The position numbers and the translations under genes are program-made. DNA of 64,000 nucleotides from Bacteroidota bacterium (lineage in GTDB: Bacteria; Bacteroidota; Bacteroidia; 2-12-FULL-35-15): the NCBI GenBank assembly GCA_040388745.1, contig JAZKBF010000028.1:55418-119417 (forward strand). The letters are read 5' to 3'. Shown here one piece after another: positions 687 through 63,500 of the stretch. Below the pieces are notes generated by a model. It was given only the letters and a program-made list of their open reading frames with translations, was not told the DNA's origin and did not search any database. The first letter of the stretch is position 1, and every line of letters starts with the position of its first letter.

Positions 687-1772
687 ATGGCATATTTTGA
701 ATCAAATAAGTTAAAACAAATTGTTGCATTAGCGGTAATTATATTGCTTGGAAGCTTTTTATTTGTTACGGTATCGGGTTTTATACCTGCTTTTTTAGGA
801 GCTGTTATATTTTTTATTATTTGTTCTCCTCCCATGCTTTTTTTTATGAATAAATTAAAGCTGAAAAGAGGAATAGCAGTTGCACTTGTTCTTCTTTTGT
901 CATTTTTGGTAATTATAATTCCGGTATTTAGTGTTACCTATTTATTGATATCTAAAGTGTCTGCTATGTTCTCCGAATCTCATAATTTTTATGTGGAAAT
1001 TCAAAATCTTAATTCATTTATTAATACAAAATATGGTGTAAATATTTTAGCTCCGGAAAATTTAATGAAGCTGCAAACGGAGATCACCAATTTTATACCT
1101 AATTTATTGGGACAAACAATGAGTATCCTTGCTGACATTGCCATAATGTATTTTATTTTATTCTATTTGCTCTATACCGAAACATCAATGGAAAAAAGCA
1201 TTGTACGTTTTTTGCCATATACAACAGAAAATGCTCATTTATTTGCCAAAGAACTGGTATCTCAAACATATTCAAATGTAATAGGCGCCCCACTATTGGC
1301 GATAATTCAAGCAGGTTTTGCGATTTTAGGGTTTTGGATCTTTGGTTTAAATGAACCCGTGTTTTGGGGATTAATGTGTGGATTTTTATCTTTCATTCCA
1401 TTTGTGGGGTCGGCATTAGTATGGTTTCCTGCAGGTGTAATACTTGCATCCAGTGGTGCTTATTGGCAAGGGATCGCAATTTTAATTTACGGATTAGTCG
1501 TGATCATTAATGTTGATAATGTGTTTCGTTTTATTCTTCAAAAAAAAATTGCTGATATCCATCCTTTAGTAACTGTTTTTGGAGTGATCATTGGTTTGAA
1601 ATGGTTTGGCATACCCGGTATAATTTTTGGTCCATTATTAATTTCCTATTTTCTTATTATGATAAAAATATATCGAGCAGAGTATGGGAATAAAAATTAT
1701 ATGTCCTCTGAAACGGCCTTTAATAATGATAATTCCTCAATTGACAACTCTTCTGGAAATTTAAAATCCTGA
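687..1772 (+). CDS. AI-2E family transporter (PerM/UPF0118)
   Basis: 361 aa with about 8 predicted TM helices and the characteristic layout of AI-2E permeases (N-terminal TM pair, central loop, C-terminal TM bundle ending GPLLISYFLIMIK). Confidence 0.75.
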   Translation: MAYFESNKLKQIVALAVIILLGSFLFVTVSGFIPAFLGAVIFFIICSPPMLFFMNKLKLKRGIAVALVLLLSFLVIIIPVFSVTYLLISKVSAMFSESHNFYVEIQNLNSFINTKYGVNILAPENLMKLQTEITNFIPNLLGQTMSILADIAIMYFILFYLLYTETSMEKSIVRFLPYTTENAHLFAKELVSQTYSNVIGAPLLAIIQAGFAILGFWIFGLNEPVFWGLMCGFLSFIPFVGSALVWFPAGVILASSGAYWQGIAILIYGLVVIINVDNVFRFILQKKIADIHPLVTVFGVIIGLKWFGIPGIIFGPLLISYFLIMIKIYRAEYGNKNYMSSETAFNNDNSSIDNSSGNLKS

Positions 1773-1886: not shown

Positions 1887-1996
1887 GCGTTAGGGATTGC
1901 AACGTAAATCCTTCCCTTCCGCTATTTGGCGGAAGGGAAGATTGAAGTGTAAAGCCCGCCCTTTTCCATTTGAGGAAAAGGAACGCCCAAATGAAT
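1887..1996 (+). repeat. copy 1 of a conserved two-hairpin element (candidate structured RNA / 3'UTR element)
   Basis: The blocks GCGTTAGGGATTGYAACGTAAATCC - hairpin - GATTGAAGTGTAAAGCCCGCC - hairpin - AACGCCCAAATGAAT are shared with 36418-36516. The hairpin stems differ in sequence but stay fully complementary (ttcccttccgc/gcggaagggaa and ccttttcc/ggaaaagg here). Confidence 0.5.
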
Positions 1997-3444: not shown

Positions 3445-4029
3445 TTAAATTTTACCTTCAAGCATTAATAATTTTGCTTTCAAAACCGTTATAACTGTTA
3501 AGCTGTCTGTTATCTCACCTGATTCTACCATTTTGTATAATTCGTTAAAATGAATTTTTCGAACTACCAATTGCTCATCATCTTCGGGCTCCGATTCTCC
3601 AAAGCTTAAGTCCTGAGCGATGTATAAGATACCAAATTCATCACTTGCTGAATTGCTCATGTGAACTTCTTGAATTTTGGTCCACTTATTGGCTGTTATA
3701 CCAGTTTCTTCAAGTAATTCGCGTTTAGCAGAATCCAATGCAGGCACATTGTGATCCCCTCCGCCTTCAGGGATTTCCCAAGAATATTGGTTTATCGGGT
3801 AACGATATTGACCAACGATCCATGTATTATAATCATTATCTAACGGTAAAATACCAATGGCTAAATTTTTAAAATGAACCACTGAATAAGTTCCCGGATT
3901 ACCATTTGGATTCAATACATCATGCTTTGTGAGGCCTATCCATGGCGAGTCATATATTTTTTCGGATGTTAATGTTGTCCAGGGATTCTCATGGTTCTGA
4001 ACGTGTTCTTCTTTCGTAGATTTAGCCAT
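3445..4029 (-). CDS. NUDIX hydrolase
   Basis: Nudix box GGDHNVPALDSAKRELLEETGI (G-x5-E-x7-REuxEExGu). Confidence 0.75.
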   Translation of the reverse strand: MAKSTKEEHVQNHENPWTTLTSEKIYDSPWIGLTKHDVLNPNGNPGTYSVVHFKNLAIGILPLDNDYNTWIVGQYRYPINQYSWEIPEGGGDHNVPALDSAKRELLEETGITANKWTKIQEVHMSNSASDEFGILYIAQDLSFGESEPEDDEQLVVRKIHFNELYKMVESGEITDSLTVITVLKAKLLMLEGKI

Positions 4030-31249: not shown

Positions 31250-31334
31250 GGAGAAATGGCAGAGTGGTCTATTGCGGCAGTCTTGAAAACTGTTGAGGGT
31301 TATACCTCCTGGGGTTCGAATCCCTATTTCTCCG
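31250..31334 (+). tRNA. tRNA-Ser (anticodon UGA)
   Basis: Manual fold: acceptor GGAGAAA/TTTCTCC plus discriminator G, a 3-bp D stem (GCA/TGC), anticodon stem GCAGT/ACTGT with loop CTTGAAA (anticodon TGA), a long variable arm GAGGGTTATACCTCC, and T arm TGGGG-TTCGAAT-CCCTA. No CCA is encoded. Confidence 0.85.
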
Positions 31335-31351
31335 CTGAAAAATGCAAAAAA

Positions 31352-35681: not shown

Positions 35682-36317
35682 ATGAAAAAATATAAATTCT
35701 TTTTGTTTTTTATTTTCATCACCAGCCTCGCTTTTTCTCAAAAAAAGGAAACAAAGAATCATGGCACAATTAAAATTTCTAAAGTAAAACCTGATTCAAT
35801 CTATATTAAAGCTGAAATGAACTTTCAGCAATTTCAGGAGGGAAACAAAACAAGCTCCAAACCAATTACAGTTCCTCTTAATAGAGTGATCGTCCCATTT
35901 CCAAAGGCCCCGGACAATACTATTCCGTTTGATTACAATCAATTCTGCGCTAAAAATATTAAAATCAAAAAGAGTGATTTAGGAGATAAAATTTCAGATA
36001 CCATTCGTATTCAAGTGAGAATTTTAGATAATGGGAAGGCATATTATAAGGATCTAACTCCTTTAATGGTTTTGAGTGGCGTTCCGGCTTATTATGATAA
36101 AAAGATGAACGCCTATAAATTAGATGCGATCCATTGGAAATGCCTGAGTGCCTTGAAAGAGATTGAACAATGGGCACCGGCATATACTGTGGTTGAGGTA
36201 AGAGAAAAATTTAAAAAAGTAATTGTAATAAAACCCAAAAAGAAAGTTCTTTCCGCTGTTGGAATTTTAACGCTTGTGTTTTCTACAATACCATTTGAGG
36301 AATTAAAACCTGAATAA
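35682..36317 (+). CDS. hypothetical secreted protein
   Basis: It has a signal peptide (FFLFFIFITSLAFSQ). No recognisable motifs. Confidence 0.45.
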   Translation: MKKYKFFLFFIFITSLAFSQKKETKNHGTIKISKVKPDSIYIKAEMNFQQFQEGNKTSSKPITVPLNRVIVPFPKAPDNTIPFDYNQFCAKNIKIKKSDLGDKISDTIRIQVRILDNGKAYYKDLTPLMVLSGVPAYYDKKMNAYKLDAIHWKCLSALKEIEQWAPAYTVVEVREKFKKVIVIKPKKKVLSAVGILTLVFSTIPFEELKPE

Positions 36318-36417
36318 AATTAACCCAATCGATAAAACTATTAATTGCCACCGCATAATAAATAAAATTGTAGAAGACTTTAATAGAAGTATTCAATGCC
36401 CTTCCAAAGATAATGCC

Positions 36418-36516
36418 GCGTTAGGGATTGTAACGTAAATCCTTTTCTGTTTAGAAAAGATTGAAGTGTAAAGCCCGCCACTTTCTCTTTTAAGAAAGTG
36501 GAACGCCCAAATGAAT
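36418..36516 (+). repeat. copy 2 of the conserved two-hairpin element (candidate structured RNA)
   Basis: Same conserved flanks as 1887-1996. The hairpins here are ttttct/agaaaa and ccactttct/agaaagtgg, which are compensatory changes relative to copy 1. Confidence 0.5.
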
Positions 36517-45004: not shown

Positions 45005-45547
45005 TTTAATGTTCGATATTACATAATTGAGCATGAAAACAGCAAAATTTTTTAATAATTTAGAATTTACCACCTATTTATTTACAAAAAAAACATTCCC
45101 TCTACCAGTTTTTTTTAAATTATTGCTAATAATCGTGATTTTTTAACTAGATATCGAAATAGTCGCCTGCTTTTTATAGATTTTTGATTCGTTAGGAATT
45201 TTGGAGTTAAATTAAAATCTTTTCGATGTAAAGTTCTTATTATCAGTTATTTGTATTGATGAATTGCTCTTTTTCCCTTCCTGTTAATTTTTCGACAAAC
45301 TCCTATTTTATCTATTTTAACGGAAGAAAAAGCACCCTGAAATATTCTTGAAATTAAAATTGTTGATAAAATTGTTAACAAATAATAAACATTTAAGTGT
45401 TTGATTTTCATGTATTTGAGTTTGATTTGCCCTGTTTTTTCATAAAAAAGCAATGTGTGTGTATAACTTTATTTCCGACTTTTTCGTATATTTCAGAAAT
45501 AAATCCGGGGATTTAATATTAGTTATAGGAAATTTTGTAATTGTAAT

Positions 45548-48500
45548 ATGGGAAATATTTATTCTTCCATGATTAATATTAAAAAAGTCATTGCAACATT
45601 AAAAATGATGCTTATAGCATCGCTTTTAGTTGTATCTGATGGTTTTAATAATTTTTCGTTTGCGCAGAGTCCTCAAATCTATACATCATCTAATACATTT
45701 ACTGTTCCTGCTTGTGTTTCTTCCATAACTATTGAAGTTGTTGGTGGAGGCGGTTCAGGTGGAGGTAATGGAGGCGGTGGTGGCGGTGGAGGAGGATATT
45801 CCAGTGGAACTTTTGCGGTTACTGCAGGTGCTAATCTGGCTGTAACAGTTGGAGGGGCGGGCACTACAACCAGTGTAGCTGCACTTATTTCAGCTACAGG
45901 CGGAGTTAATGGCGGAAGTGTTTCCAATCCCACAATTGGTGGTGGTGGTGCAGGTGGCGTAGGTTCAGGAGGCTCGGTCAATCGTACAGGAGGAACAGGC
46001 GGGGGAGGATATTATACGTATTTCGGAGGTGGTGGTGCAGGGGCTGCAGGTTCAGCCGGAGGAGGTAGTAATGGTGGTGATGTTATTGCATGGACAGGTA
46101 GTAATTGTTTGCAGCCAGGTGGTTCTGCCGGAGCCGGTGGCGGTGCACCGGGTGGAAACGGTGGTAAAGGTGCAGGTTTTACTGAAGGTACTTGTACTAC
46201 AAGCAATCCGGCTGCTGTTGGTGTGAACTATGGCGGTGGCGGTGGCGGTGGAAATGGTAATGGAGGTGCTGCTCAAGCTGGTGCCGGAGGTTATTGTAAA
46301 ATTTCATGGACTGCAAATCCTGCAATTGCAACTAATACGATAAGTGCGGCTCAAACTATTTGTTCTGGAGTTGTTCCGGCTGCATTGGCAGGATCTACTC
46401 CAACAGGAGGTAGTGGAGCTTATACTTATTTATGGGAATCTTCAACAACAAGTGCAGGAGCTGGTTTTGCCGCTGCATCAGGTACTAACACCAATATTGG
46501 CTATATTCCTCCTGCTTTAACGGCAACCACATGGTATAGAAGAACTGTGTATTCTGGCGGATGTACCGATGTTTCTGCAGCCATTGAAAAAACTGTTAAT
46601 CCAATACCTACAGTAACTACCGCAGCAACTGCTTCTACATGTAGTGGAACCGGCCCAAATATTGCTTTAACAGCAAGTGTGGCAAGTACTTTTACCTGGA
46701 CCATAGGAACAAATCCCGGTGCTATTACCGGAGCAAGTGCCAGTTCGGGATCTCCCATTAATCAAACACTTACTAATCCAAGTAATTCATCATCAAATGC
46801 CATACAATATCTTGTTACTCCTACTTCAACAGGAGGTTCATGTGTTGGTTCAGCTTATACAATAACTGTAACAGTAAACCCCAAACCCGCAATTTCTAAT
46901 GCTTCAACTAAGACGATATGTACTTCCACAGGTACAGCGATCACATTGGCTGCCAACGGTGTAAGTAGCACCTATGCCTGGACGTTGGGAGCAATAACAG
47001 GTGGTATCACGGGAGCAAGCGCCACGAGTGGATCTACTATTAGCCAAACGCTCGTCAATCCAAGTAATACAACTGACGGTACGGTGCCATACCTTGTTAC
47101 TCCCACTTCAACAACAGGTTCATGTGTGGGTGTTGCTTATACAATAACGGTAACTGTTACTCACGCTCCTACAATGACCAATGTATCCACATCTACGATA
47201 TGTAGTGGAACAGCATCCGGGATAACATTAACTGCAAATGAAGCAAGTACTTTTGCCTGGACAATAGGAACCAACGCAGGTGGCATCACAGGTGCCAGTG
47301 CCGGCTCTGGTTCCAATATGAGTCAAACGCTTACCAATCCAAGCAATTCAGCTGTCAATACCATACAATATATTGTTACACCTACTTCAACAGCAGGTGC
47401 TTTATGTTCTGGGCCTTCTTATACTATGACTGTAACGGTTAATCCTAAGCCGGCTGTAAACAATGCTGCAACTGGTTCAACTTGTAGTGGAACAGGTCCG
47501 AATTTTGCATTAACAGCCACTGCTGCCAGTACTTTCACTTGGACAGTTGGGACAATAACAGGTGCGATAACCGGAGCCAGTAATAGTTCGGGAACCCCTA
47601 TTAATCAAACGCTTACAAATCCAAGTAATGCAACAGATGGTACCGTACAATATCTCATAACCCCCACTTCAACAACGGGTACATGTGTAGGGGCTGTTTT
47701 CTCATTGGTTGAAACAGTTAACCCAACACCGGCAGTTACTAGTGCAGCCACAAAAACGATATGTACAGCCACTGGTACAGCCATAACATTAGCCGCAAGT
47801 GCACCAAGTAATTTTGCCTGGACATTAGGCGCGATAACAGGTGGAATTACCGGGGCAAGCGCCACTAATGGAGCTGCTATTAGTCAAACGCTCACTAATC
47901 CAAGTAATACCGGGGATGGAACCGTGCCATATCTTGTTACCCCAACTTCTACAACCGGTTCCTGTGTTGGTAATGCTTCAACAATAACTGTAACAGTAAC
48001 TCATGCACCAACAATAACCAATGCTGCAGCAGCTTCAATATGTAGCGGAACCGCAACAGGCATTACTTTAACTGCAAATGAAGCAAGTACATTTGCATGG
48101 ACCATAGGGTCAAATCCTGGCGGCATTACTGGTGCAAGTGCCGGCTCAGGCTCTAATATGAGCCAAACGCTTACTAATCCAAGCAATGCAACAGCAAACA
48201 CCATACAATATATTGTTACCCCTACTTCAACTGCAGGCGCTTTATGTGCTGGTCCCGCTTTTACTATAACGGTAACAGTGAATCCAAAACCGGTAGTTAC
48301 AACTGCAGCAACTGATCCTACTTGTAATGGAACCGGACCGAATATCTCATTAACAGCGACTGCGCCAAGTTCTTTTGCCTGGACGATTGGAACGATAACT
48401 GGTGCCATTACTGGAGCCAGTAACAGTTCAGGCGCTACTATTAATCAAACACTTACTAATCCAAGCACAACAACGGCAGGTACGGTGCAGTATCTGGTTA

Positions 48501-51500
48501 CACCCACTTCAACAACAGGTTCATGTGTTGGAGTTGCATATACAATCACGGTAACAGTAAATCCGGAACCAATTGCTATATTTACCGGAGGCGCTAACCA
48601 AACAGTATGCTCTGGAGTTGCACTTCCAACTCCAATTGCGCTTGGTACAAGTAACAGCATTGCAGGAACAACATTTGCCTGGACAAGAGATAATACAACA
48701 AATGTTACTGGTACTACAAGTGGTTCAGGAAATATCTCAGCTCTGGTATTGACCAACATAACCACTTCGCCACAAACGGTAACTTTTACAATAACACCAA
48801 CGGGCCCCACTCCAACCTTTTGTATAGGTGCAACAATAACCACAACTGTTGTGGTAAATCCAATCCCGGTATTAAACAGTAGTTTGACAATACCTGCAAT
48901 TTGTAATGGAAACACATTGTCTTATGGTGCCACCAGTGCAACTTCAGGTGCAACATTTGCATGGACTCGTGCTGCGGTTACTAATATTACACCGGCAACA
49001 TCATCCGGAACAGGCAATGTAAGTGAAGCATTAACGAATGGATCTGGTTCTCCCGGAGCACCCATCAATGTTACTTATGTGTATACAACTACAGCAAATG
49101 GTTGCAGTAATGCAGGACAAAACGTTGTGGCAACAGTAAATGTACTTCCAATTGGAACCATCACTAACAGTGCACAAACCATTTGTTCAGGAGCAACATT
49201 TTCAACAATGGTTTTAGGTACCAGTAATGGTGTTACTTCCACTACTTTTACCTGGACCAGAAATAATGGTGCTATAACAGGTATTGGAGCAAGTGGGTCG
49301 GGTGGAAGTATTGGAGGAGTTGCATTAACAAATACAACTGGTTCAGACCAAACAATAACATTTACAATAACACCATCCTGTTCCGGTGCCAATTTAACTG
49401 CTACAATTTTAGTTCGAGCAAGTATTGTATTAAATAGCACATTATCTCCACCTGCAATTTGCAGTGGCGCTACTTTTGCTTATACACCAACAAGCGCAAC
49501 CGGTGGCGCTACTTTCGCATGGACCCGTCCTGTCGTATCAGACATATCATCACCGGGAGGGGCTTCTGGCGCTGGCAGTGTAAGCCAGGTGTTAAATAAT
49601 AGCAGCACTAATAGCATTAATGTTACTTATGTATACACAACTACAAATCCAGGAACAGGCTGTAGTAATGCTGGAGAGAATGTAGTTGTAGCGGTTGAAA
49701 AAGCACCTGTGGCAGCAGGAACAATAAGCGGTACCCCTTTAATATGCCAGGCACAAACATACTCTTATTCGGTGCCGGCAATACAAAATGCCACCACTTA
49801 TACCTGGAGTTATTCCGGAACCGGAGTTACTATAAATGGATCAACATCAAACATAACGGTTTCTTTTTCAACTTCAGCTACATCAGGCAATCTAACGGTA
49901 AGAGGAACCAATAGTTGTGGAAATGGAACGATATCTGCCAACTATGCCATTGGGTTAAATGCTAATGCCACAATTGCTTTGACATCAACTGCAGGAACTA
50001 ATTTCCAAACCGTTTGTGTAAATATTCCGATAGCGGATATTACTTATTTGGTTGGAGGTGGCGGAACAGGTGCAGGAGTTACTGCATTGCCTACCGGGAT
50101 CTCAAGTTCTTTTAGCGGCAGCACGTTGACAATCAGTGGTACTCCTACTGTGGTTGGGACTTTCCCTTATACAATAACTACAACAGGAACCTGTATTCAA
50201 ACCAGTGCAGCCGGAAGCATTATAATTGCTCCTCTTCCAACATTAAACAGTTCATTGGCCCCTCCGGCAGTGTGTAGTAATTCAACTTTCAATTACACAC
50301 CAACAAGTCCGGTTTCAGGTGCAACATTCACCTGGACAAGAGCTGCGGTAGCAGGGATAAGTAATGGAGCAAACAGTGGTACTGGTAATCCTGGTGAAAT
50401 TCTTTACAATACTACTTTAACAGCAGTAAATGTTACCTATGTTTATACTGTAGTTGCTAATGGTTGTTCAAGTGCTTCAATCTCCAATGTTGTAGTTTCA
50501 GTAAAGCCACAGGCTTTATTAAGTAGTTCACTTACACCACCGGCTATTTGCAGTGGAATAGCATTTACGTATACCCCTGCAAGCGCAACAGCTGGTTCAT
50601 CTTTTGCATGGGCAAGAGCCGCAACAGGAGGGATCAGCCAGGCAGCCAACAGTGGCACAGGCGATCCGAACGAAATATTAACCAATACAACAGCTACTAC
50701 TGTTAATGTTACTTATGTTTATACGATCACTGCTACGGGGTGTAGTTATAATCAAAATGTTGTTGTACCGGTAACACCAACCCCAACATTAAGCAGTTCA
50801 TTAAATCCTCCTGCAGCTTGCAGTGGAGTTGCAGTGAACTATACACCAACCAGTGCAACTCCGGGGGCATCGTTCACCTGGACAAGAGCTGTAGTAGCCG
50901 GTATAAGCAATGGTGCTGGAAGCGGTACTGCCAACCCTTTCGAAACACTTACAAATACAACAACTTTAGCGGTTAACGTAACTTATATTTATACAGTAAC
51001 AGCCAATAGTTGCACCAATCTGACCACTTTCAGTGTAATTGTTCCTATAAATCCAAGGCCAACCTTAAACACCACCTTAACTCCTCCCGCAATATGTAGT
51101 GGTACCGTTTTTAGTTATGTCCCCGGCAGTGCAGTGGCAGGTTCAACATTTGCTTGGGCAAGAGCAGCAATTGGTGGTATAAGCAATCCAGCGGCTAATA
51201 ATACAGGTAATCCATCAGAAACGCTTACCAACACTTCAACAGCTCCGATCAATGTTACATACGTTTATACAACTGCCGCCAACGGATGCAGCTTTGATCA
51301 AAGTGTGGTTGTAACGGTAAATCCGAAACCAACGCTAAACAGTAGTTTGGCACCTACAGTATGTAGTGGCTACACCTTTAACTATGTGCCGACAAGTGCA
51401 ACAGCTGGTGCTTCATTTACATGGACAAGAGCGGTAGTAGTAGGAATCAGCAATGGAGCAGGAAGCGGATCAGGTTCTCCTTCAGAGATCCTTACCAATA

Positions 51501-54500
51501 CTACAACAGCATCTGTAAGTGCTACTTACATTTATACTGTATCGGCTAATAGTTGCGTAAATGCAACTACTTTTAGCGTGATCGTTAATGTATTTCCAAG
51601 GCCAACCTTAAGCAGTACATTAACGCCCGGAGCAATATGCAGCAATGTCATTTTCAATTACACACCCGCAAGCGCCATCGGAGGGGCAACATTTGCCTGG
51701 GCAAGAGCCGCAATACCTGGTATCAGTAATGCCGCTAACAATGGTGTAAATAATCCTGCCGAAACCCTTATCAATACAACAGCTGCTCCGGTAAATGTTA
51801 CATATATTTATACAACATCAGCGAATGGTTGCAGTTTTGATCAAAACGTGATCGTAACGATAAACCCTAATCCTACTTTAAACAGTAGTTTAACACCAAC
51901 GGTTTGTAGTGGGGCTGCTTTTAATTATACCCCTACAAGTGCAACAGCGGGTGCATCATTTGCATGGACAAGGGCAGTAGTAGCCAATATCAGCAATGGA
52001 GCAGGTAGTGGTACAGGTGCTCCATTTGAAACACTTTATAATACTACAACAGTTTCCGTTAATGTAACCTACATTTATACAGTTGCTGCCAATGCATGTA
52101 CAAATGCTACAACTTTTAGTGTAGTTGCTACTGTTTATCCTGCGCCTACATTAAGCAGCACATTAACACCTGCTGCAATTTGCAGTAATACTATTTTCAA
52201 TTATCCCCCTTCAAGTGCAATAGGCGGGGCTACTTTTTCATGGTCAAGAGTTGCGGTGGGAGGTATCAGCAATGCAGCAAACAGCGGCATCAACAATCCG
52301 AACGAAACCCTGATCAATACTTCAACGGTTCCTGTAAATGTTGTTTACGTCTACACAACTACTGCCAATGGTTGCAATAATAATCAAAATGTAATTGTAG
52401 CAGTAAATCCAAAGCCAGTACTAAACAGTAGTCTAACGCCAACAGTATGCAGTGGAGCATCTTTCAATTACACCCCCACAAGTGCAACACCGGGAACAAC
52501 ATTCACATGGACAAGAGCCGCAGTAGCAGGTATCAGTAATGGCGCGAACAGTGGTTCAGGTACTCCATTTGAAACTCTTTTTAATACCACAGGTGCTTCA
52601 GTGGATGTTACTTATATTTATACACTTTCGGCTAATGGTTGTACCAATGCAACAACATTTAGTGTGGTTGCCACCGTTTACTCAAATCCAACATTAAGCA
52701 GTACAACAACACCTCCTGCAATTTGTAGTGCTACTCTTTTTTCTTACGTGCCATCAAGTTCAACTGGTGGAGCAACATTCTCGTGGTCAAGAGCTACAGT
52801 GCCGGGTATCAGCAATGCATCAAGTAGTGGCACAAACAATCCGAATGAAACACTTACCAATACATCAACGGCTCCTATCAATGTTACCTATATTTATACG
52901 ACTTCTGCCAATGGTTGCAATAATAATCAAAACGTAATTGCAACTGTTAATCCAACACCGGCATTGAACAGTAACCTGACACCATCAGTATGTAGCAATT
53001 CTACCTTTAATTATACACCAACAAGTGCTACTGCAGGTGCCACATTTACATGGACAAGAGCTGCCGTAGGTGGCATTAGTAATGGAGCGGGTAGCGGCAG
53101 CGGCTCTCCATTCGAAACACTTATCAATACAACAGCAGCTCCTGTAACAACCACTTATATTTTTACTGTAACCGCTAATCTTTGTACAAATGCAGCAACA
53201 TTCAGTGTAGTAGTTACGGTAAATCCAAGGCCTGCATTAAGCAGTGCGCTTACTCCTCCGGCAATTTGTAGTGGTACTGTTTTTAGTTACGCACCAACAA
53301 GTGCAACGGCAGGGGCTACATTCCCCTGGAACAGAGCAGCAGTAGGAGGTATCAGCAATGCAGCTAATAACGGTACAGGTAATCCGAGCGAAACCCTTAA
53401 TAATACAACAACAGCTCCTGTTAATGTTACTTATATTTATTCAACTACTGCCAATGGTTGCTTTTTTGATCAAAGTGTAGTGGTAACGGTAAATCCAAGA
53501 CCTGCATTAAACAGTAGTCTTACACCATCAGTTTGCAGCAATTCTGCTTTTAATTATACCCCAACAAGTGCAACCGCTGGTGCTACATTTACATGGACAA
53601 GAGCAACAGTTGCCGGTATCAGCAATGGAGTGGGAAGTGGGGCTGGTTCTCCTTTCGAAACCCTTATTAATACAACCGCTAATCCTGTAAATGTTACTTA
53701 TATTTTTACAGTAACCGCTAATTTATGTACAAATGCAACCACTTTCAGTGTTGTTGCAACTGTAAATCCAAGACCAACACTAAGCAGTGGTTTAACTCCT
53801 CCTGCAATTTGCAGTGGTACTGCTTTTAATTATTCTCCAACAAGTGCAACAGCAGGTGCAACATTTCCATGGGCAAGAGCGGCCGTTGGAGGTATCAGCA
53901 ATGCAGCGAATAATGGCACTGGTGATCCGGGCGAAACATTAATTAATACTACAACAACTCCGATCAATGTTACTTATGTTTATTCAACAACTGCAAACGG
54001 TTGCTTTTTTGACCAGAATGTTGTAGTAATTGTTAATCCAACACCGGCATTGAACAGTAACCTGGCGGTAGCGGTATGTAGCCACATCACCACTTTTAAT
54101 TATACACCAACAAGTGCCACACCGGGCGCAACATTTACCTGGACAAGAGCGGTAGCTGCAAATATCAGTAATGGCGCGGGAAGTGGTTCAGGCTCTCCGT
54201 CTGAAGTTCTTTTCAATATCACAGCTGCCCCGGTAACTTGTACTTATATTTTTACCGTTACCGCTAATACATGTGTAAATCCAACTACTTTCAGTGTAGT
54301 GGTTACAGTGAATCCAAGGCCATTGTTAAGTAGTTCATTAACACCTCCTGCAATTTGTAGCGGTACAGCTTTCAGTTACATACCGGCAAGTGCAACCACC
54401 GGTTCAACCTTCCCATGGTTTCGTGCTGCCGTTCCGGGTATCAGCAATCCTGCCACCAGTGGTACAGGTAATCCGAGCGAAGTATTAAGCAATACCACCA

Positions 54501-57500
54501 CCACTCCGATAAATGTTACATATACATATGGAGTAACAGCTAATGGTTGCCAGGTTAATAACAATGTAATTGTAACCGTATATCCGCCTCCAACATTAAA
54601 CAGTACATTAGCTCCTGGTGGATATTGCTCTAATTCCCAACAAGGCTATGTTGTTAGTTACACACCTTCAAGTGCAACACCCGGAGCAACGTATACCTGG
54701 ACAAGAGCCGTGGTAGCTGGTGTGAGTGCAGGCGCAGGCAGCGGATCTGGTAATATATATGAAGGACTAAATAATACAACATCAGCTAATATTAATGTTA
54801 CCTATGTTTATACAGTGACAGCTAATGGTTGTACAAACCCAACAACCTATAATGTAGTTATTGTATTATATCCTAGTCCGGTATTAAGCACCAGTACGGC
54901 TCCACCTGCAATTTGTAGCGGAACTGCTTTCAATTATGTGCCATCAAGTTCAGTAGCAGGTACAACATTCACCTGGTGGCGCGGAACTACTACTGGTATA
55001 AGTCAGCCAGCGAGCAGTGGTTCTGGTAATCCCATCGAAGTGCTTACCAATTTATCAACCTTTCCTGTTGTGGTTGTTTATTTGTTTAGAGGAATAGCAA
55101 ATGGATGCCGTTATGATGTAAATGTGAACCTTACAGTTAATCCGGAACCATCATTAAGCAGTACAATTACGCCTCCGGCAATATGTAACAATACAGCTTT
55201 CAGTTATATACCAACAAGTGATATAGTAGGTGCAACATTTGCATGGACAAGAGCGGCAGTAGCAGGTATCAGTAATCCGGCCGGAAGTGGTACGGGTAAT
55301 CCAAATCAAATACTTATCAATACTACCACGGCTCCTGTAAATGTTACCTATGTTTACACGATATCCGCAAATGCCTGTACAAGTTTAACAACATCGAGTG
55401 TAGTGGTATCCGTAAATCCAAACCCCGGATTTACAAGTAGTTTAACCCCTCCTGCAATTTGCAGTGGTACTGCATTTAATTACTCTCCTACAAGTGGAAC
55501 AGCCGGGGCATTGTTTACCTGGTCCAGAGCGGCAGTGGTGGGTATAAGTAATATGGCTGCCAGTAGTATCGGTAATCCCAATGAAGTACTTATAAATACA
55601 ACAGCAGCTCCTGTAAATGCTACTTATACCTATAGTATATCAGCAAATGGTTGTACAAATCCTACAACATTTAATGTAATAGTAAGTGTAAATCCAAACC
55701 CAACATTAACGAGTACACTAACTCCCCCGATAATTTGTAGTGATTCGGTTTTTAATTATGTACCAACAAGTGCAGTAACAGGCGCAACGTTTAGTTGGGT
55801 AAGACAAGCTGTGGTGGGTATAAGCAATGCACCCGGCAGTGGAACATTCAATCCGAATGAAACTCTTGTAAATACCACAACCGGTACTATAAATGTTACC
55901 TACGTTTATACAGTATCAGCAAATGGTTGCGCTAATCCAACTACTTACAATGTTGTGGTTGCTGTAAAAATTTGTGCTTGTAATCATTCATTAAGCAGCA
56001 GTTTAACGCCTCCAGCTATTTGTAGTAGCACTCCATTTAATTACATACCAACAAGCTCCTCACCGGGAGCTTCATTTACCTGGACAAGAGCCGTAGTAGC
56101 CGGTATCACCAACGCGGCAGGAACGGGTTCCGGTAATCCTAACGAAACGCTTATCAATACTACTGTTGCTCCTATTAATGTTACCTATATTTATTCGGTT
56201 ACTATGATCTGTACAAATCCAATAACGTATAGTGTAGTAGTTAGGGTAAACCCAAGTCCAACATTAACAAGTACATTAACGCCTCCCGCTATATGTAGCG
56301 GAATAGCCTTCAGCTATACTCCATTAAGTGGAACAACAGGCTCAACATTTCCATGGACAAGAGCGGTGATATCCGGGCTTAGCAATCCATTTGGAAGTGG
56401 TACCGGCAATCCATCGGAAGTACTTACCAATACATCATCATCACCTATAAATGTCACTTATGTTTACAATGTAACTGCCAATGGTTGCAGTAACGGTCAA
56501 AATGTAGTTGTAACGGTAAATCCAAAACCAACATTAAGCAGCACATTAGCACCTCCAGCGGTTTGTAGTGGTGTTGTTTTCAATTATTCCCCAACCAGTT
56601 CAACTGGCGGGGTCTTATTTTCCTGGACAAGAGCAGCGGTTGCGGGTATCAGCAATGTAGCCGCAAGTGGTACGGGTAATCCTGCTGAAACACTTATCAA
56701 TACAACTGCAGCTCCTAAAAATGTAACGTACATTTATACATTATCAGGCAGTGGATGTGTGAATGCAACAACCTATAGTGTAGTTGTTGCAGTAAATCAG
56801 GAACCAACCTTAAGCAGTACACTATCACCGCCTGCAATTTGCAGTGGCTCCACTTTCTACTATACACCAACAAGTGCAACAAGTGGTGCTACTTTTACAT
56901 GGACACGAGCAGCTGTAGTAGGCATAAGCAATCCTGCCACTTTCGGTTCAGCCGACCCGATTGAAACGCTTATTAATACCACCTCTGTTCCTAAAAATGT
57001 TACTTATGTTTATACGTTATCTGCTTTCGGCTGTGTAAACTCAACAACTTACAGTGTGGTTGTTGTTGTAAATCCAACACCTTTATTAAGCAGTGTTACA
57101 TTACCTCCGGCAATATGTACAGGCACTGTTTTTAGCTATGTACCAACAAGTGCAACAGTTGGCGCCTCATTTGCATGGGACAGAGCTGCGGTTATAGGGA
57201 TAAGTAATGTTGCCGCCACAGGTACAGCTAATCCGTCCGAAACACTTGTTAATACTACTTCAGGTCCTGTAAATGTTACTTATGTTTATACCTTAACGGC
57301 AAACGCTTGTACAAATGCAACAACATATAACGTAGTTGTAACTGTAAAGCCAACACCGATCCTGAGCAGCCTTTTAACTCCTCCGGCAATTTGCAGCGGT
57401 GCAACTTTTAATTATACACCTACAAGTGCAACAGCTGGTACCACTTTTTCATGGGCAAGAGCAGTGGTAGCAGGCATCAGCAATGTGGCTGCCAGCGGAT

Positions 57501-60500
57501 CCGGCAATCCGGCCGAAGTACTTGCCAATACAACTACAAACCCTGTAAATGTTACCTACATTTATACATTAACGGCTAACAGCTGCGCAAACCCAAGTAC
57601 TTATAGTGTTGTGGTTCAGGTAAATCCTGTGCCCATCTTTATCAGTAGTTTAACCCCTCCTTCCATTTGCAGTAATACAGCTTTCTATTATACGGCAATA
57701 AGCTCAACGGCCGGTGCATCATTCTCATGGACAAGAGCAGCTGTAGTTGGTATCAGTAATCCAGCAACCAGTGGCACTGGCGATCCGATCGAAACGCTTA
57801 TTAATACAACCACTATTCCGAAAAACGTTACGTATGTTTATACAGTATCAGCTAATGGTTGTACAAATGCAAGTACTTATAGTGTGGTTGTTATAGTAAA
57901 TCCAATACCTACGTTAGGCAGTGTTTTATTACCTCCTGCTATATGCAGTGGTGCATCTTTTAGTTATACAGCAACCAGTGTTACAGCGGGTGCAACCTTT
58001 GCCTGGACAAGAGCAGCAGTAATAGGGATAAGCAATGCAGCAGCAACTGGTGCCGGGAATGTGAGCGAAATACTTACAAATACAACTGTAGCACCAATAA
58101 ATGTTTCTTATATTTATACAGTATCAGCCAATGGTTGCACAAATGCAACTCTCTATAATGTTGTGGTTCGTGTAAATCCAACACCAACATTAAGCAGCAC
58201 ATTAGCTCCTCCTCCGGTATGTAGTGATTCTGTTTTTAATTACACTCCAACCAGTCCGGTTGCAGGCACCACTTTCACATGGACAAGAGCTGCAGTGGCA
58301 GGTATCAGCAATCCGGCAGCCAGCGGTAGTGGTAATCCGAACGAATCGCTTACCAATACAACAGCAAGTCCTATAAACGTTACTTACATTTATACTTTAT
58401 CAGCTAATGGTTGCTTGGGCGCTACAACTTACAATGTAGTTCTTAATGTGAGAGTAGCTTGTCAATGTAATCATTCATTAAGCAGTAGTTTAACACCTCC
58501 GGCAGTTTGTAGTGGTATCGTTTTCAGTTATGCACCTACAAGTTCATCACCGGGTGCAACATATACATGGTCAAGGGCTTTGGTAACAGGCATTAGTAAC
58601 GCAGCAAGCAGCGGTGCCACTAATCCCAACGAAATTCTTATCAATACCACCAGCGCTCCGGTAAATGTTACCTACATTTATTATGTAACAGCTAATGCCT
58701 GTACAAATCTAAATAGCTTTAGTGTAGTTGTGATCATAAATCCAAGACCACTTTTAAGCAGTACATTAACACCAGCTGCAATATGCAGCGGAACAACTTT
58801 CAATTACATTCCGGCAAGTGAAACTTCAGGTGCTTCTTATACATGGAGCAGAGCAACCGTTACAGGTATTAGCAATTCGATCGGTAGTGGTTCAGGTAAT
58901 CCGAATGAAACACTTATCAATACACTCACAACGCCTGTAAATGTTACTTACATTTATACAATTTCCGCTAATGCCTGTAGTTTTAATCAGAGTGTAGTTG
59001 TTGCTATTAATCCTACTCCAACATTGAGCAGTAGTTTGGCACCTCCGGCAATTTGCAGTGGTACTGCTTTCAATTACTCACCTACAAGTGGAACAACAGG
59101 TGCCTCTTTTACCTGGACAAGGGCCGCGGTAGCAGGCATCAGCAATGGGCTGAATAATGGCACTGGGAATCCTGGTGAAGTACTTATTAATACAACGGTA
59201 AATCCAATAAATGTTACTTATGTTTTCAGCTTATCTGCTAATAGCTGTCCGGGTGGAACAACCTATAGCGTGGTTGTTCGCGTAAACCCTTTACCAACAT
59301 TAAGCAGCACTTTAACACCTTTAGCAATATGTAGCGGTGCAGCATTTAGTTATATTCCAACAAGTAACACAACAGGTACTTCCTTTGCCTGGACAAGAGC
59401 AACGGTAGCAGGTATCAGCAATGTTGCCGGACTGGGAACGGACAATCCAAATGAAACACTCAACAATACAATAGCATCCAATGTAAATGTTACTTATATT
59501 TATACATTATCGGCTAATGGTTGCACCAATGCCAGCACTTTTAGCGTTGTGGTTCCTGTTACAGCTGCCCCAACATTAAGCAGTAGTTTAGCACCGCCTG
59601 CAATATGCAGTGGTACACCTTTTACTTACGGGCCAACAAGCGCAACATCAGGTGCGTCCTTTGCATGGACCAGAGCTGCAGTGGCGGGCATCAGCAATAT
59701 AGCCGCCAGTGGTACTGGTAATCCAAACGAAACACTTACCAATACAGCGTCTACCGCTATAAATGTTACTTATGTTTATACAGTTTCCGCGAATGGTTGT
59801 ACCAATCCAACTACATACAATGTTGTAGTTACAGTTAATCTATTGCCAACATTAAGCAGCAGTTTAGCACCCTCAGCAATATGCAGCAGTGCACTCTTTA
59901 ATTACACTGCAACAAGTGCAACAGGTGGAGCATCATTTACCTGGACAAGAGCAGTTGTTGCCGGTATAAGCAATGCCGCGGGCAGCGGAACCGGCAATCT
60001 GAATGAAACGCTTATCAATACAACAAACAGTTCAGTAAATGTTACTTATGTATATTCGGTAACAGCAAATGGCTGTACAAACCCTACTACTTATAGTGTA
60101 GTTATCCTTGTTAATCCTGCGGCAACATTAAGCAGCACATTAACGCCTTCAGCAATTTGCAGTGGTACGGTTTTTAATTATTCACCTTCATCTTTAACCA
60201 CTGGGGCAACATTTGCCTGGGCAAGAGCTGCAGTTGCCGGTATAAGCAATACAGCAGGGGGAAATGCTGGTAATCCAAATGAGGTACTTACGAATACAAC
60301 CACAGCTCCAATAAATGTTACTTATGTGTATTCGGTAACAGCCAATGGTTGTTTAAATCCAACAACTTACAATGTTGTGGTTCCCGTGAACCCAACACCT
60401 GCATTAAGTAGTAGTTCAAGTCCTCCTGCAATATGCAGCGGTACTGTTTTTAGTTATGCTCCAACAAGTGCCACAACCGGTGCCACCTTCTTATGGACAA

Positions 60501-63500
60501 GAGCGGTGGTAGCTGGTATCAGCAATATAGGAGGTAGTGGAGCAGGTAATCCGAATGAAACCATTATAAATACAACAGCAGCTTCTGTAAATGTTACTTA
60601 CATCTATACGGTAACTGCTAATCTTTGCGCCAATGCCACCACTTATAATGTTGTGGTTGCCATAACGCCATCACCAACGCTAAGCAGCAGTTTAGCACCT
60701 CCTGCATTTTGCAGTGGCACTCCTTTTAATTACACACCTTTATGTCCAACATCAGGTGCCTCATTTACATGGACAAGAGCAGTGGTAGCAGGTATCAGCC
60801 AGATAGCGAGCAGTGGAACCGGTAACCCGAATGAAACACTTACAAACCTTACCATCGCTTCTGTAAATGTGACCTATATTTATACTGTTTCAGCAAATGG
60901 CTGTACAAACCCAACAACCTTCAGTGTAGTTGTTCCGGTAACGGCAGCACCAACATTAAGCAGCAGTTTAGCTCCTCCGGCATTTTGCAGTGGCACGGCT
61001 TTCAGTTATACACCTTTGAGTGCAACAGTTGGTGCAACATTTGCATGGACAAGAGCGGTAGTAGCCGGCATCAGTAATTTAGCAAACAGTGGCACCAACA
61101 ATCCAAATGAAGTATTGACCAATACAACAACTGCACCCGTAAATGTTACTTATGTTTATACTGTATCTGCTAATGGTTGCGCCAATGCTACTACTTTTAG
61201 TGTTGTTGTTCCTGTAAATCCAATACCGGTGTTAAACAGTAGTTTAGCACCTCCGGCAATATGCAGTGGTACTCCTTTCGCTTACGGACCAACAAGTGCA
61301 ACTACAGGTGCCTTATTTGCATGGACAAGAGCTGCAGTATCAGGTATCAGCAATATAGCAAGTAATGGAACAAGCAATCCGAATGAAACGCTTATCAATA
61401 CAACAACAGCTGGCGTAAATGCTACTTATGTTTATACTGTAACTGCTAATGGCTGTACAAATGCCAGCACTTTTAATGTTGTGGTTACAGTATATCCTGC
61501 ACCAATTTTAAGCAGCAGTTTAACGCCCCCAACAATATGCAGTGGTAATGCTTTCAGTTATACTCCTGCAAGCGCAACACCAAGTGTAGCATTTGCCTGG
61601 ACAAGAGCATTGGTAACGGGCATCAGCAATATATCAAATAGTGGTGCGGGTAATCCGAACGAAATACTCACCAACACCACTGCAAACCCTGTAAATGTTA
61701 CTTACGTATATACTTTATCTGCTAATGGATGTACTAATCCAATAACTTTTAGTGTGGTTGTAACGGTTACCCCTGCACCAACATTAAGCAGTACATTAAC
61801 TCCTCCTGCAATTTGCAGTTCAACGCTTTTCAATTATTCGCCAACAAGTTCAACTCCCGGGGCAACTTTTACCTGGACCAGAGGAGTAGTAGGAGGTATC
61901 AGTCAGCCGGCCGGCAGTGGTACCGGTGATCCAAACGAAGCACTTACCAATACAACCGGGGCCCCTATAAATGTTACTTATGTTTATACAGTATCAATTA
62001 ATCTTTGTACAAATCCAACTACTTACAATGTAGTTGTATCTGTAATTTTAGCTCCAACATTAAATAGCAGTTTAGCGCCTCCTACAATATGTACCGGCTC
62101 TCTTTTTAGTTATGCGCCTACAACTGCAACACCACCGGCTGCATTCTCATGGACAAGAGCCGCTGTAGCGGGAATCAGTGAAATAGCAGGCAGTGGTACC
62201 GGTAATCCAAGCGAAATTCTTACCAATACAACAACATCACCTATAAATGTTACTTACCTGTATACTGTATCCGCCAATGGCTGTGTAAATTCAACGGCTT
62301 ATAGTGTAGTTGTTACCGTTAGCCCAAAACCAACCTTGAGTAGTACCTTATCCCCTCCGGCAGTTGTTTGTGGCGCTCCTTTTAACTACACACCTTTAAG
62401 CGCAACAGGAGGCGCGGCATTCTCATGGACAAGAGGAGTGGTTGTGGGTATCAGCAATATAGCGGGTAGTGGCACAAATGATCCTAATGAAGTACTAACC
62501 AATACAACGGATAATCCAATAAACGTTACGTATGTTTATTCTGTATCTGCTAACGGTTGTACTAATCCAACAACCTTTAGTGTGGTGGTTGCTGTAAGCC
62601 CAACACCTACATTAAGCAGTAGTTTATCACCTCCTGCATTTTGTAGTGGTACTGCATTCAGTTACACACCTACTAGTGCAACTGTAGGCGCAACATTTGC
62701 ATGGACAAGAGCGGTGGTATTGGGTGTAAGCAATAGTGCAAGCGCTGGGGCAAATAATCCCAACGAAATCCTTACAAATACAGTAACAGTTCCTGTAAAT
62801 GTCAAATATGTTTATACAGTATCTGCAAACGGTTGTACTAACGCAACAAACTTTAATGTAATTGTTCCGGTTAATCCAAACCCGACTTTAAACAGCACTG
62901 CAACACCTCCTGGAATATGTAGTGGCAGCGTGTTCAGCTATGCGCCAACAAGCGCAACAACCGGTTCAACTTTTTCCTGGACCAGAGCTTCAGTTGCAGG
63001 AATTAGTCAAATAGCCGGTAGTGGCTTTACTAATCCGCTTGAAACACTCACAAATACAACAGCTGCTTCTGTAAATGTAACTTACATTTATACTGTTTCT
63101 GCTAATACTTGTACCAATGCTACAACATTTAATGTAGTGGTTACTGTTTATGCAAACCCATTGTTAACCAGTAGTTTAACTCCTCCTGCAGTGGTGTGTG
63201 GTGCTGCTTTTAATTACTCTCCAACAAGTACCACTTCAGGTGCAGCATTTGGATGGACAAGAGCGGTAGTAGCAGGTATCAGCAATATAGCAGCCAGCGG
63301 TGCAGGTAATCCAAGCGAAACGCTGAACAATACAACTATAAATCCTATAAATGTTACTTATGTTTATACCGTTGCCGCTAATGGTTGCACAAATGCTACA
63401 ACCTTTAATGTGGTTGTGGCAGTGAACCCAACTCCAATATTAAGCAGCACATTAACCCCTCCTGCAATTTGTAGTAATACTTCTTTCACCTATACTCCCT

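Follow-up and report, generated by a model that had tools for sequence, protein, structure and literature searches.

The two conserved elements at positions 1887-1996 and 36418-36516 of the window (the 64-kb stretch of DNA analysed here), both on the + strand, are copies of Flavo-1 (RF01705), a family already known, and our observations on its homologues suggest that Flavo-1 is a dispersed intergenic repeat rather than a regulator of neighbouring genes. We think it probable that the copies belong to a structure-maintained repeat of the REP/ERIC kind, in which a symmetric rod is a candidate protein-binding site and the neighbouring genes are incidental. The window copies themselves most likely have no particular connection with the AI-2E transporter gene, with rimO or with the adjoining hypothetical genes.

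The two window copies of Flavo-1

Flavo-1 was defined in 2010 by comparative genomics (Weinberg et al. 2010, PMC2864571); almost all of its members were recorded in Flavobacteria, and other Bacteroidetes or Spirochaetes accounted for a few. It is typed by Rfam as "Gene; sRNA" and, by abundance, is one of the leading 'sRNA' families in databases, without an assigned function. Scanning of the whole window at the Rfam gathering thresholds gave three matches, one to a tRNA and two to Flavo-1. Copy A matched at 1882-1965 (56.6 bits, E-value 1e-9) and copy B at 36410-36484 (52.9 bits, E-value 1e-8), both above the gathering cut-off of 42 bits for the family and both over model positions 1-76 of 76, that is, the full Flavo-1 model. 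This comparison had been proposed in the first-pass annotation, which also considered that only these two copies might exist, with no homologues elsewhere; many homologues were found, and the conserved, structured element that it described is upheld as a Flavo-1 match with real covariation. A third copy in the 64-kb window was found neither by a permissive Rfam scan nor with an extended covariance model.

The 17-nt arm pattern of the element has four exact matches and one match with a single mismatch in the window, against 0.42 expected, and none of 100 shuffles reached five matches, so its occurrence in the window is not a matter of chance. The folding z-scores of the two copies were -6.5 and -4.0 with RNA parameters and -6.8 and -5.3 with DNA parameters, and their predicted RNA fold energies were -48 and -28 kcal/mol. 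Both copies share with the published family (Weinberg et al. 2010, PMC2864571) the hairpin with two symmetric internal loops and the arms GAUUG...AAAUCC and GAUUG...AAAGC, and the window would probably fall within its taxonomic range (Bacteroidota, some Spirochaetota). By sequence, the closest relatives of the window copies lie in a Bacteroidia MAG.

The 34% G+C of the window and a giant PKD-repeat ORF also fit Bacteroidota. This ORF (45503-64000, + strand) runs without a stop to the window end, over at least 6,160 aa, with a G+C of ~0.42 against 0.34 elsewhere and a GC skew that changes sign, and nine PKD_5 stretches (PF19406) and one PKD_6 domain lie within its first 3,000 aa; the product is a very large surface protein rich in repeats, of the SprB/adhesin type. 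The sole tRNA in the window is a tRNA-Ser (anticodon TGA) at 31250-31335 on the + strand.

Direct reading and alignment bore out the three sequence blocks by which the two-copy element had originally been recognised: block 1 (GCGTTAGGGATTG[C/T]AACGTAAATCC) is common to both copies, and blocks 2 and 3 (GATTGAAGTGTAAAGCCCGCC and AACGCCCAAATGAAT) are identical in both. The hairpins are unlike in sequence and length yet, as had been noted, perfectly complementary, with all four stems fully paired. In copy A, the stem of hairpin 1 is TTCCCTTCCGC/GCGGAAGGGAA (11 bp) and that of hairpin 2 is CCTTTTCC/GGAAAAGG; in copy B, the corresponding stems are TTTTCT/AGAAAA (6 bp) and CCACTTTCT/AGAAAGTGG. With P1 as the closing helix, P2 as the main hairpin and P3 as an optional variable hairpin, the two copies are composed as follows.

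Copy A
1887..1891, + strand: P1 5' strand GCGTT, paired with 1982-1986 in the minimum-free-energy fold (P1 covaries in homologues)
1893..1911, + strand: P2 5' arm, GG followed by GATTGCAACGTAAATCC (Rfam Flavo-1 alignment; arm pattern at 1895-1911)
1912..1939, + strand: variable terminal stem-loop of P2 (11-bp stem as read, 12 pairs in the RNA fold)
1940..1957, + strand: P2 3' arm GATTGAAGTGTAAAGCCC (Rfam alignment and arm pattern)
1960..1981, + strand: P3 hairpin CCTTTTCC/GGAAAAGG (RNA fold and homologues; beyond the Rfam match end at 1965)
1982..1986, + strand: P1 3' strand AACGC (fold and pair covariation)
1987..1996, + strand: conserved single-stranded tail CCAAAT, then GAAT (flank logo; the tail lies within the microvirus indel described below)

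Copy B
36418..36422, + strand: P1 5' strand GCGTT (sequence, RNA and DNA folds)
36424..36442, + strand: P2 5' arm, GG followed by GATTGTAACGTAAATCC (Rfam alignment and arm pattern)
36443..36458, + strand: variable terminal stem-loop of P2, 6 bp (sequence and RNA fold)
36459..36476, + strand: P2 3' arm GATTGAAGTGTAAAGCCC (Rfam alignment and arm pattern)
36478..36501, + strand: P3 hairpin CCACTTTCT/AGAAAGTGG (RNA fold and homologues; beyond the Rfam match end at 36484)
36502..36506, + strand: P1 3' strand AACGC (homologues and RNA fold)
36507..36516, + strand: conserved tail CCAAAT, then GAAT (sequence and flank logo)

Three-way-junction architecture of the family

Folded on the + strand, the complete Flavo-1 module of ~100 nt forms a three-way junction. 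As seen in ~130 homologues, it consists of the 5-bp closing helix P1 (GCGNN/NNCGC), the hairpin P2, the optional variable hairpin P3 and a CCAAAU tail. In the Rfam alignment, P2 comprises the helices GGG/CCC and UU/AA, a 2-bp central helix and AAUC/GAUU, which are set apart by a 1x1 mismatch and two symmetric 3x3 GNA/GNA loops. P2 is thereby a rod of pseudo-two-fold symmetry, capped by a free-form, perfectly paired terminal stem-loop that varies in sequence and length across the family. Since the two conserved flanks pair with each other in this alignment, their resemblance, which had earlier been taken for an internal duplication, is instead the pseudo-two-fold symmetry of one helix whose two strands they form.

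The public Flavo-1 model is truncated: it covers P2 only and ends just past the 3' arm, so that P1, the second hairpin (P3), the tail and AACGCCCAAAT fall outside it. Because GCGTT and AACGC pair as a closing helix, the whole element is a three-way junction, and both window copies take up this junction in their minimum-free-energy fold, under RNA as well as DNA parameters. Family membership is the same here as in the published work, whereas P1, the optional P3 and the CCAAAU tail lie outside the published P2-only description.

A scan with the two-arm pattern yielded 13 viral stretches and at least 117 genome stretches. Perfectly pairing 5-mers, the 3' one followed by CC, were present in 80 of the 124 non-identical copies among the matches listed, and P1 occurred there in at least ten Watson-Crick variants, namely GCGTT/AACGC (34), GCGTG/CACGC (14), GCGCC/GGCGC (5), GCATT/AATGC (4) and others. 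The stretch between P2 and the 3' strand of P1 holds the additional hairpin and measures from 0 to ~100 nt among these matches. In the 75 type-I copies among them, the tail after P1 reads CC and then A, A, A and T at 65, 84, 80 and 60%, respectively, the CC being invariant owing to the selection rule for type-I copies. A second form without the extra hairpin (yTAGCCCn...nGGGAAAtAGCTCCtAAAA; 25 of 124 copies among the matches listed) is found in Flavobacterium and Chryseobacterium and retains a 3-bp closing helix.

The helices are supported by covariation. In an alignment of 59 sequences, which were chosen for a pairing P1, 95.4% of cells pair and double changes occur at 15 of 24 pairs, a result equalled by none of 500 shuffles. 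The covariance model then built from this set gave 136 matches, in which 94.6% pair, against 37-59% in slid controls, with double changes at 20 of 24 pairs. The P2 arm pairs also covary, varying between GC, CG, AU and UA, and one position is G-C 43 times and A-U 15 times. Two further structural proposals were rejected. A pseudoknot of the CCAAAU tail with the U-rich loops was suggested by the AUUUG that each loop of copy A contains, but their complementarity was equal to that of reversed-tail and shuffled-loop controls, and a tRNA-like reading of P1 plus CCA finds no discriminator base, with A as the third tail base in only 65% of copies.

Genomic context and dispersal

The upstream + strand ORFs lie at 687..1772 (copy A) and 35682..36317 (copy B), and the genes beside the two copies, which encode an AI-2E transporter, RimO and hypothetical proteins, are unrelated. 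The first-pass annotation had pointed out that both copies have the same orientation and lie about 100-120 nt past a + strand gene stop. The distances are indeed 115 nt (A) and 101 nt (B), but the placement is coincidental, as the flanks scored across the family are random and orthologous rimO loci are without the element.

Across the family, the orientation of Flavo-1 relative to neighbouring genes is random. Among the matches listed, the relation to the nearest long ORFs was tandem sense in 27 cases, tandem antisense in 29, convergent in 17 and divergent in 17, and the left gene was co-oriented in 51 cases and opposed in 55, with 50 and 57 on the other side; these counts rest on 106-107 scorable flanks and crude ORF calling (longest ORFs, not a gene finder). 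They agree with a transcriptome study of F. psychrophilum, which reported 128 Flavo-1 copies, placed 'indistinctly' sense or antisense to transcribed regions and in many cases not transcribed. The bias of element orientation against local GC skew, taken as a sign of the replication strand, was weak (69:44, p=0.02, among the matches listed). In a Dokdonia chromosome, the gaps between the genes of an operon, read from the sequence as thiC-thiE-thiD, are occupied by two oppositely oriented copies. Genes for LeuRS and ABC-F were considered as recurrent neighbours and dismissed; they occur within the same 8-kb windows, but at inconsistent distances and in inconsistent orientations.

We found no sign of a promoter or an intrinsic terminator belonging to the element. 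The aligned flanks contained no conserved upstream column or motif among the matches listed, the Bacteroidota -7 box TAnnTTTG was present upstream in sense of 18 of 116 copies against 22, 14 and 24 in control positions and hence not enriched, and sigma-70-type matches were at chance level. Neither window copy has a + strand terminator-like site, P3 is followed by AACGCCCAAAU, and the random orientation likewise speaks against a terminator.

At 80 metagenome loci (~420 kb) encoding RimO proteins 72-92% identical to that of the window, no Flavo-1 was detected with the extended model, nor with Rfam in the 20 closest. In the closest of these relatives (L132, L134 and L135; RimO ~90% identical), ftsY ends ~10-20 nt before rimO, and the window has in its place an upstream AI-2E transporter gene and a 318-nt gap (1773-2090) that holds copy A. 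Judged from this gene order, copy A is located at a break in ftsY-rimO synteny, a rearrangement point. Since the upstream gene of the relatives is a different one, no clean empty site is definable at rimO. No synteny of the window with other element-bearing loci was found.

Two copies occur in the 64-kb window and at least eight in one MAG, and the density is very different among related genomes. Close pairs within 1 kb, among the matches listed, are head-to-head in 13 cases and tail-to-tail in one. At least five of the head-to-head pairs have a gap of 39-41 nt between the matches, with ~45 nt between the P1 starts:

L072, 4552-4790: head-to-head doublet
L072, 6765-7001: head-to-head doublet
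L047, 1905-2132: head-to-head doublet
L070, 2414-2644: head-to-head doublet
L110, 2376-2621: head-to-head doublet

These constant-gap doublets come from at least three different genomes. Close pairs are found irrespective of gene context, with AT-rich spacers that are not conserved in sequence, and the two halves of the doublets differ. Same-orientation tandem arrays were also seen, with four copies at L105 6366-7235 and three at L100 6971-7465. A search for a partner gene between close pairs returned a thiE-like and one GIY-YIG-like ORF (both by sequence reading) and no recurrent candidate; the GIY-YIG-like ORF had no second occurrence among 1,940 ORFs.

Several observations count against a dispersed repeat. 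There are no target-site duplications, a matching 3-4-mer at any offset being found in at most 3-4 of 78 copies, about the shuffled expectation. Copies within a genome are not near-identical, as the window copies, and those within one MAG, differ throughout their variable stems, and so do not point to recent transposition. Some Flavo-1 copies are old and conserved. The weak GC-skew bias, and the U-G tolerance and array signals described below, also count against this reading.

In termite-gut Spirochaetales MAGs (L019, L075, L087, L098, L114 and L121), copies, some near-identical, lie at contig ends, and the L087 contig has one at both ends; in these genomes, Flavo-1 is repeated closely enough to break assemblies. 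Copies on contigs binned outside Bacteroidota, in MAGs of Saccharibacteria (L036, L055), Rhizobium (L049) and Erythrobacter (L050), are likely to reflect mis-binned contigs.

The viral matches indicate that Flavo-1 is enriched in Microviridae genomes, which account for 9 of the 13 and share a common capsid cluster. Pfam Phage_F capsid and Rep matches were obtained for L001, L005, L009 and L012, and L212, L216-L218, L230, L231, L237 and L248 are relatives of L012 that also bear the element. Copies in three of these genomes are located as follows.

L001, 3590-3681: Flavo-1 copy, antisense to the genes
L005, 4865-4977: Flavo-1 copy, antisense to the genes
L012, 758-828: Flavo-1 copy

In the L002 microvirus lineage, the space between the capsid gene and the following ORF is occupied by a minimal Flavo-1 in sense orientation; P3 is missing from it and its terminal stem measures 3 bp, yet P1, the arms and the tail are intact. 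Its position is fixed across relatives with capsid identities from 100% down to ~64%, in increasingly divergent forms. In L001 and L005, Flavo-1 directly follows the Rep gene and is antisense to every gene; it is unable to act there via mRNA or the packaged strand. The gain or loss of a whole module is visible in one pair of genomes: L247 (at ~4740) is without exactly the 78-nt element found in L237 at 3505-3583 (CGTCAGG...CCCAAATA), and the flanks GTTGCGTG and AAAATAAAC are conserved, the first G of the closing helix coming from the flank. No papers linking Flavo-1 to microviruses were found in the searched literature. Most of the set L212-L248 also share a G+C-rich imperfect palindrome of the GCGCGCGTGCG type in the first ~60-130 nt after the capsid stop, which could be a terminator or replication signal.

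Taken together, the random orientation, the lack of a promoter or terminator, the uneven density and the gain and loss of whole modules argue for a dispersed repeat and not for a regulator of its neighbours.

Transcription, strand and related repeats

The complementarity of the dissimilar hairpins had been read as evidence for an RNA. The complementarity itself stands, but the step to RNA is weak, as G-U is nearly absent and stem tips are swapped for palindromes. Among the matches listed, the variable stems contain 1003+498 Watson-Crick pairs (1,501), 9 G-T and 3 A-C, and at one locus in five Flavobacterium species the core is invariant and the distal terminal stem is replaced by unrelated perfect palindromes. 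Template switching at quasi-palindromes gives 'compensated' changes without selection on RNA, and DNA-level palindrome maintenance can explain both the near-absence of G-U and the swapped tips. The low wobble and the swapped palindromes of the variable stems hint at a DNA-level role, as does the Microviridae share of the viral matches (9 of 13), with the element sense to the genes in one lineage and antisense in L001 and L005. The MITE/REP-like alternative mentioned in the first-pass annotation is at least as likely as an sRNA. Other features are bound to one strand: at one position of the arms C-G alternates with U-G, the latter in 10 of 59 and 20 of 135 sequences, a strand-specific, RNA-like tolerance, and the purine-rich loops of P2 are strand-specific as well.

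It is unlikely, in our judgement, that the copies are free-standing sRNA genes, each transcribed and processed to a stable ~100-nt RNA that acts in trans via a protein partner and whose 5' and 3' ends P1 would join. Such RNAs would agree with the strand-specific covariation, the long-range helix P1 included, with the U-G tolerance in the arm and with sheared G-A pairs in the GNA/GNA loops, which, as read from the sequence, are possible only on this strand. On the F. psychrophilum arrays, where 13 copies were sampled, the sense signal of most increased together with that of tRNA-Cys in late growth (stationary samples) and on agar; a stable RNA species would behave in this way, although cross-hybridisation among copies could contribute. 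In exponential liquid culture, however, copies 0008 and 0011 were at the array floor (3.9) and copy 0001 was at ~4, copies 0001, 0003, 0006 and 0011 run antisense to a segment that is expressed, and the authors of the study place many matches outside transcribed regions. A promoter at a fixed or enriched position and a terminator are missing, antisense copies lie inside operons and against all genes of two microviruses, and G-U is nearly absent from the variable stems. Our distribution data do not bear out the label 'sRNA gene'.

No better prospects attach to a cis-acting mRNA element that is active only in sense, as a 3'-end stabiliser or decay barrier or as a 5'-leader element, its antisense copies being inert by-products. 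Consistent with this, a sense copy, the one with the exchanged stem tips, is kept in five Flavobacterium species (L022, L090, L093, L108 and L067) in the 5' leader of one gene, a lipoprotein-like ORF (by sequence reading) of ~147-166 aa. In three species this copy lies 10-15 nt before the predicted start, and in the remaining two the distance is -3 and the copy overlaps the start; four of the five have a conserved TTTG...TAACTTTG promoter ahead of it. The location of both window copies 101-115 nt past a + strand stop, the very stable fold, the structured-RNA-like accumulation in starved cells and the sense copy after the capsid gene in the L002 lineage point the same way. Yet sense and antisense are equal on both sides of the element (51/55 and 50/57), which is unexpected if sense were favoured, the conserved loops and tail are much more elaborate than a decay barrier requires, and the orthologous rimO loci do without copy A.

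We give little credence to a site that works only as folded ssDNA, either as a complementary-strand priming signal or as a recombination site for a tyrosine recombinase or HUH enzyme, which ssDNA phages would borrow on the model of integron attC or the CTX phage attachment site: the Microviridae share of the viral matches (9/13), the fixed position across a microvirus clade (capsid identity 64-100% to the query), the minimal phage version with P1, arms and tail intact, the almost purely Watson-Crick stems and a plan that may be likened to attC would suit it, but in L001 and L005 the element is opposite the gene strand and hence off the packaged strand, chromosomal doublets hold both orientations within 100 nt among the matches listed, the GC-skew bias is weak, there is no linked recombinase gene, and the P1 5' strand fits GTTRRRY in the commonest variant only. 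The doublets in both orientations and the weak skew argue against any strict tie to the replication strand.

The attC sites of integrons resemble the plan of Flavo-1 in their conserved symmetric boxes and variable terminal structure. Both fold as a single strand in which two such boxes are placed symmetrically and the central positions are unpaired, and in both the structure is conserved above the sequence. Membership of Flavo-1 in the attC class was nevertheless rejected, as there are no cassette arrays and no intI nearby, and the window copies lie 34 kb apart among unrelated housekeeping genes. A match to the RYYYAAC/GTTRRRY boxes was likewise discarded; the 5' GCGTT varies to GCGTG, GCGCC, GCGCA and GCATT, and the match is lost in many variants.

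The dispersed-repeat reading that we prefer has counterparts among known bacterial repeats. The REP/REPIN elements of Proteobacteria, which are associated with RAYT, are likewise high-copy intergenic repeats in either orientation, often within operons, with a fold conserved above sequence, inverted doublets and no target-site duplications. A REP, however, is an imperfect palindrome of 20-40 nt that carries a 5' GTAG-type motif, whereas Flavo-1 is a ~100-nt three-way junction with a core conserved across phyla and no GTAG-type motif. Its doublets differ in being head-to-head with an AT-rich spacer (~45 nt between P1 starts), and no RAYT-like gene is linked to it, as judged from the ORFs between a few close pairs. 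ERIC/IRU and Correia/NEMIS elements are also structured repeats, of ~100-150 nt, in transcribed intergenic regions in both orientations, and they affect RNA when co-transcribed. They differ in their long terminal inverted repeats, in the target duplications of Correia and in copies that are alike in sequence, whereas Flavo-1 copies share the core only and have no target-site duplication. From MITEs, Flavo-1 is set apart by the lack both of target-site duplications and of near-identical copies within a genome.

For such a dispersed, structure-maintained repeat, the conserved symmetric rod would be the putative binding surface of a dimeric trans-acting protein, which may recognise the folded single strand either in transient ssDNA or in RNA where a copy is transcribed in sense. 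The variable stems would then be mere spacers, presumably held as perfect palindromes by DNA-level processes, and the module would spread and persist in the manner of REP and ERIC elements. We advance more tentatively, as a possibility that falls short of an even chance, a stronger reading in which Flavo-1 is not an sRNA gene but an ancient, cross-phylum, REP-like module of folded single strand, which comes and goes as one unit, forms head-to-head doublets, has been taken up and retained by ssDNA microviruses of Bacteroidota and offers its rod as the site of a putative dimeric enzyme, perhaps a recombinase or transposase, or else a host DNA-structure protein.

As a finding in the window, two further copies of a catalogued family are ordinary. 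The three-way-junction architecture, the head-to-head doublets and the presence in Microviridae go beyond the published description of Flavo-1. If confirmed, these results would mean that annotation pipelines should drop sRNA-gene calls for Flavo-1 loci, and a search for the binding protein would be the obvious route to the function of the family.
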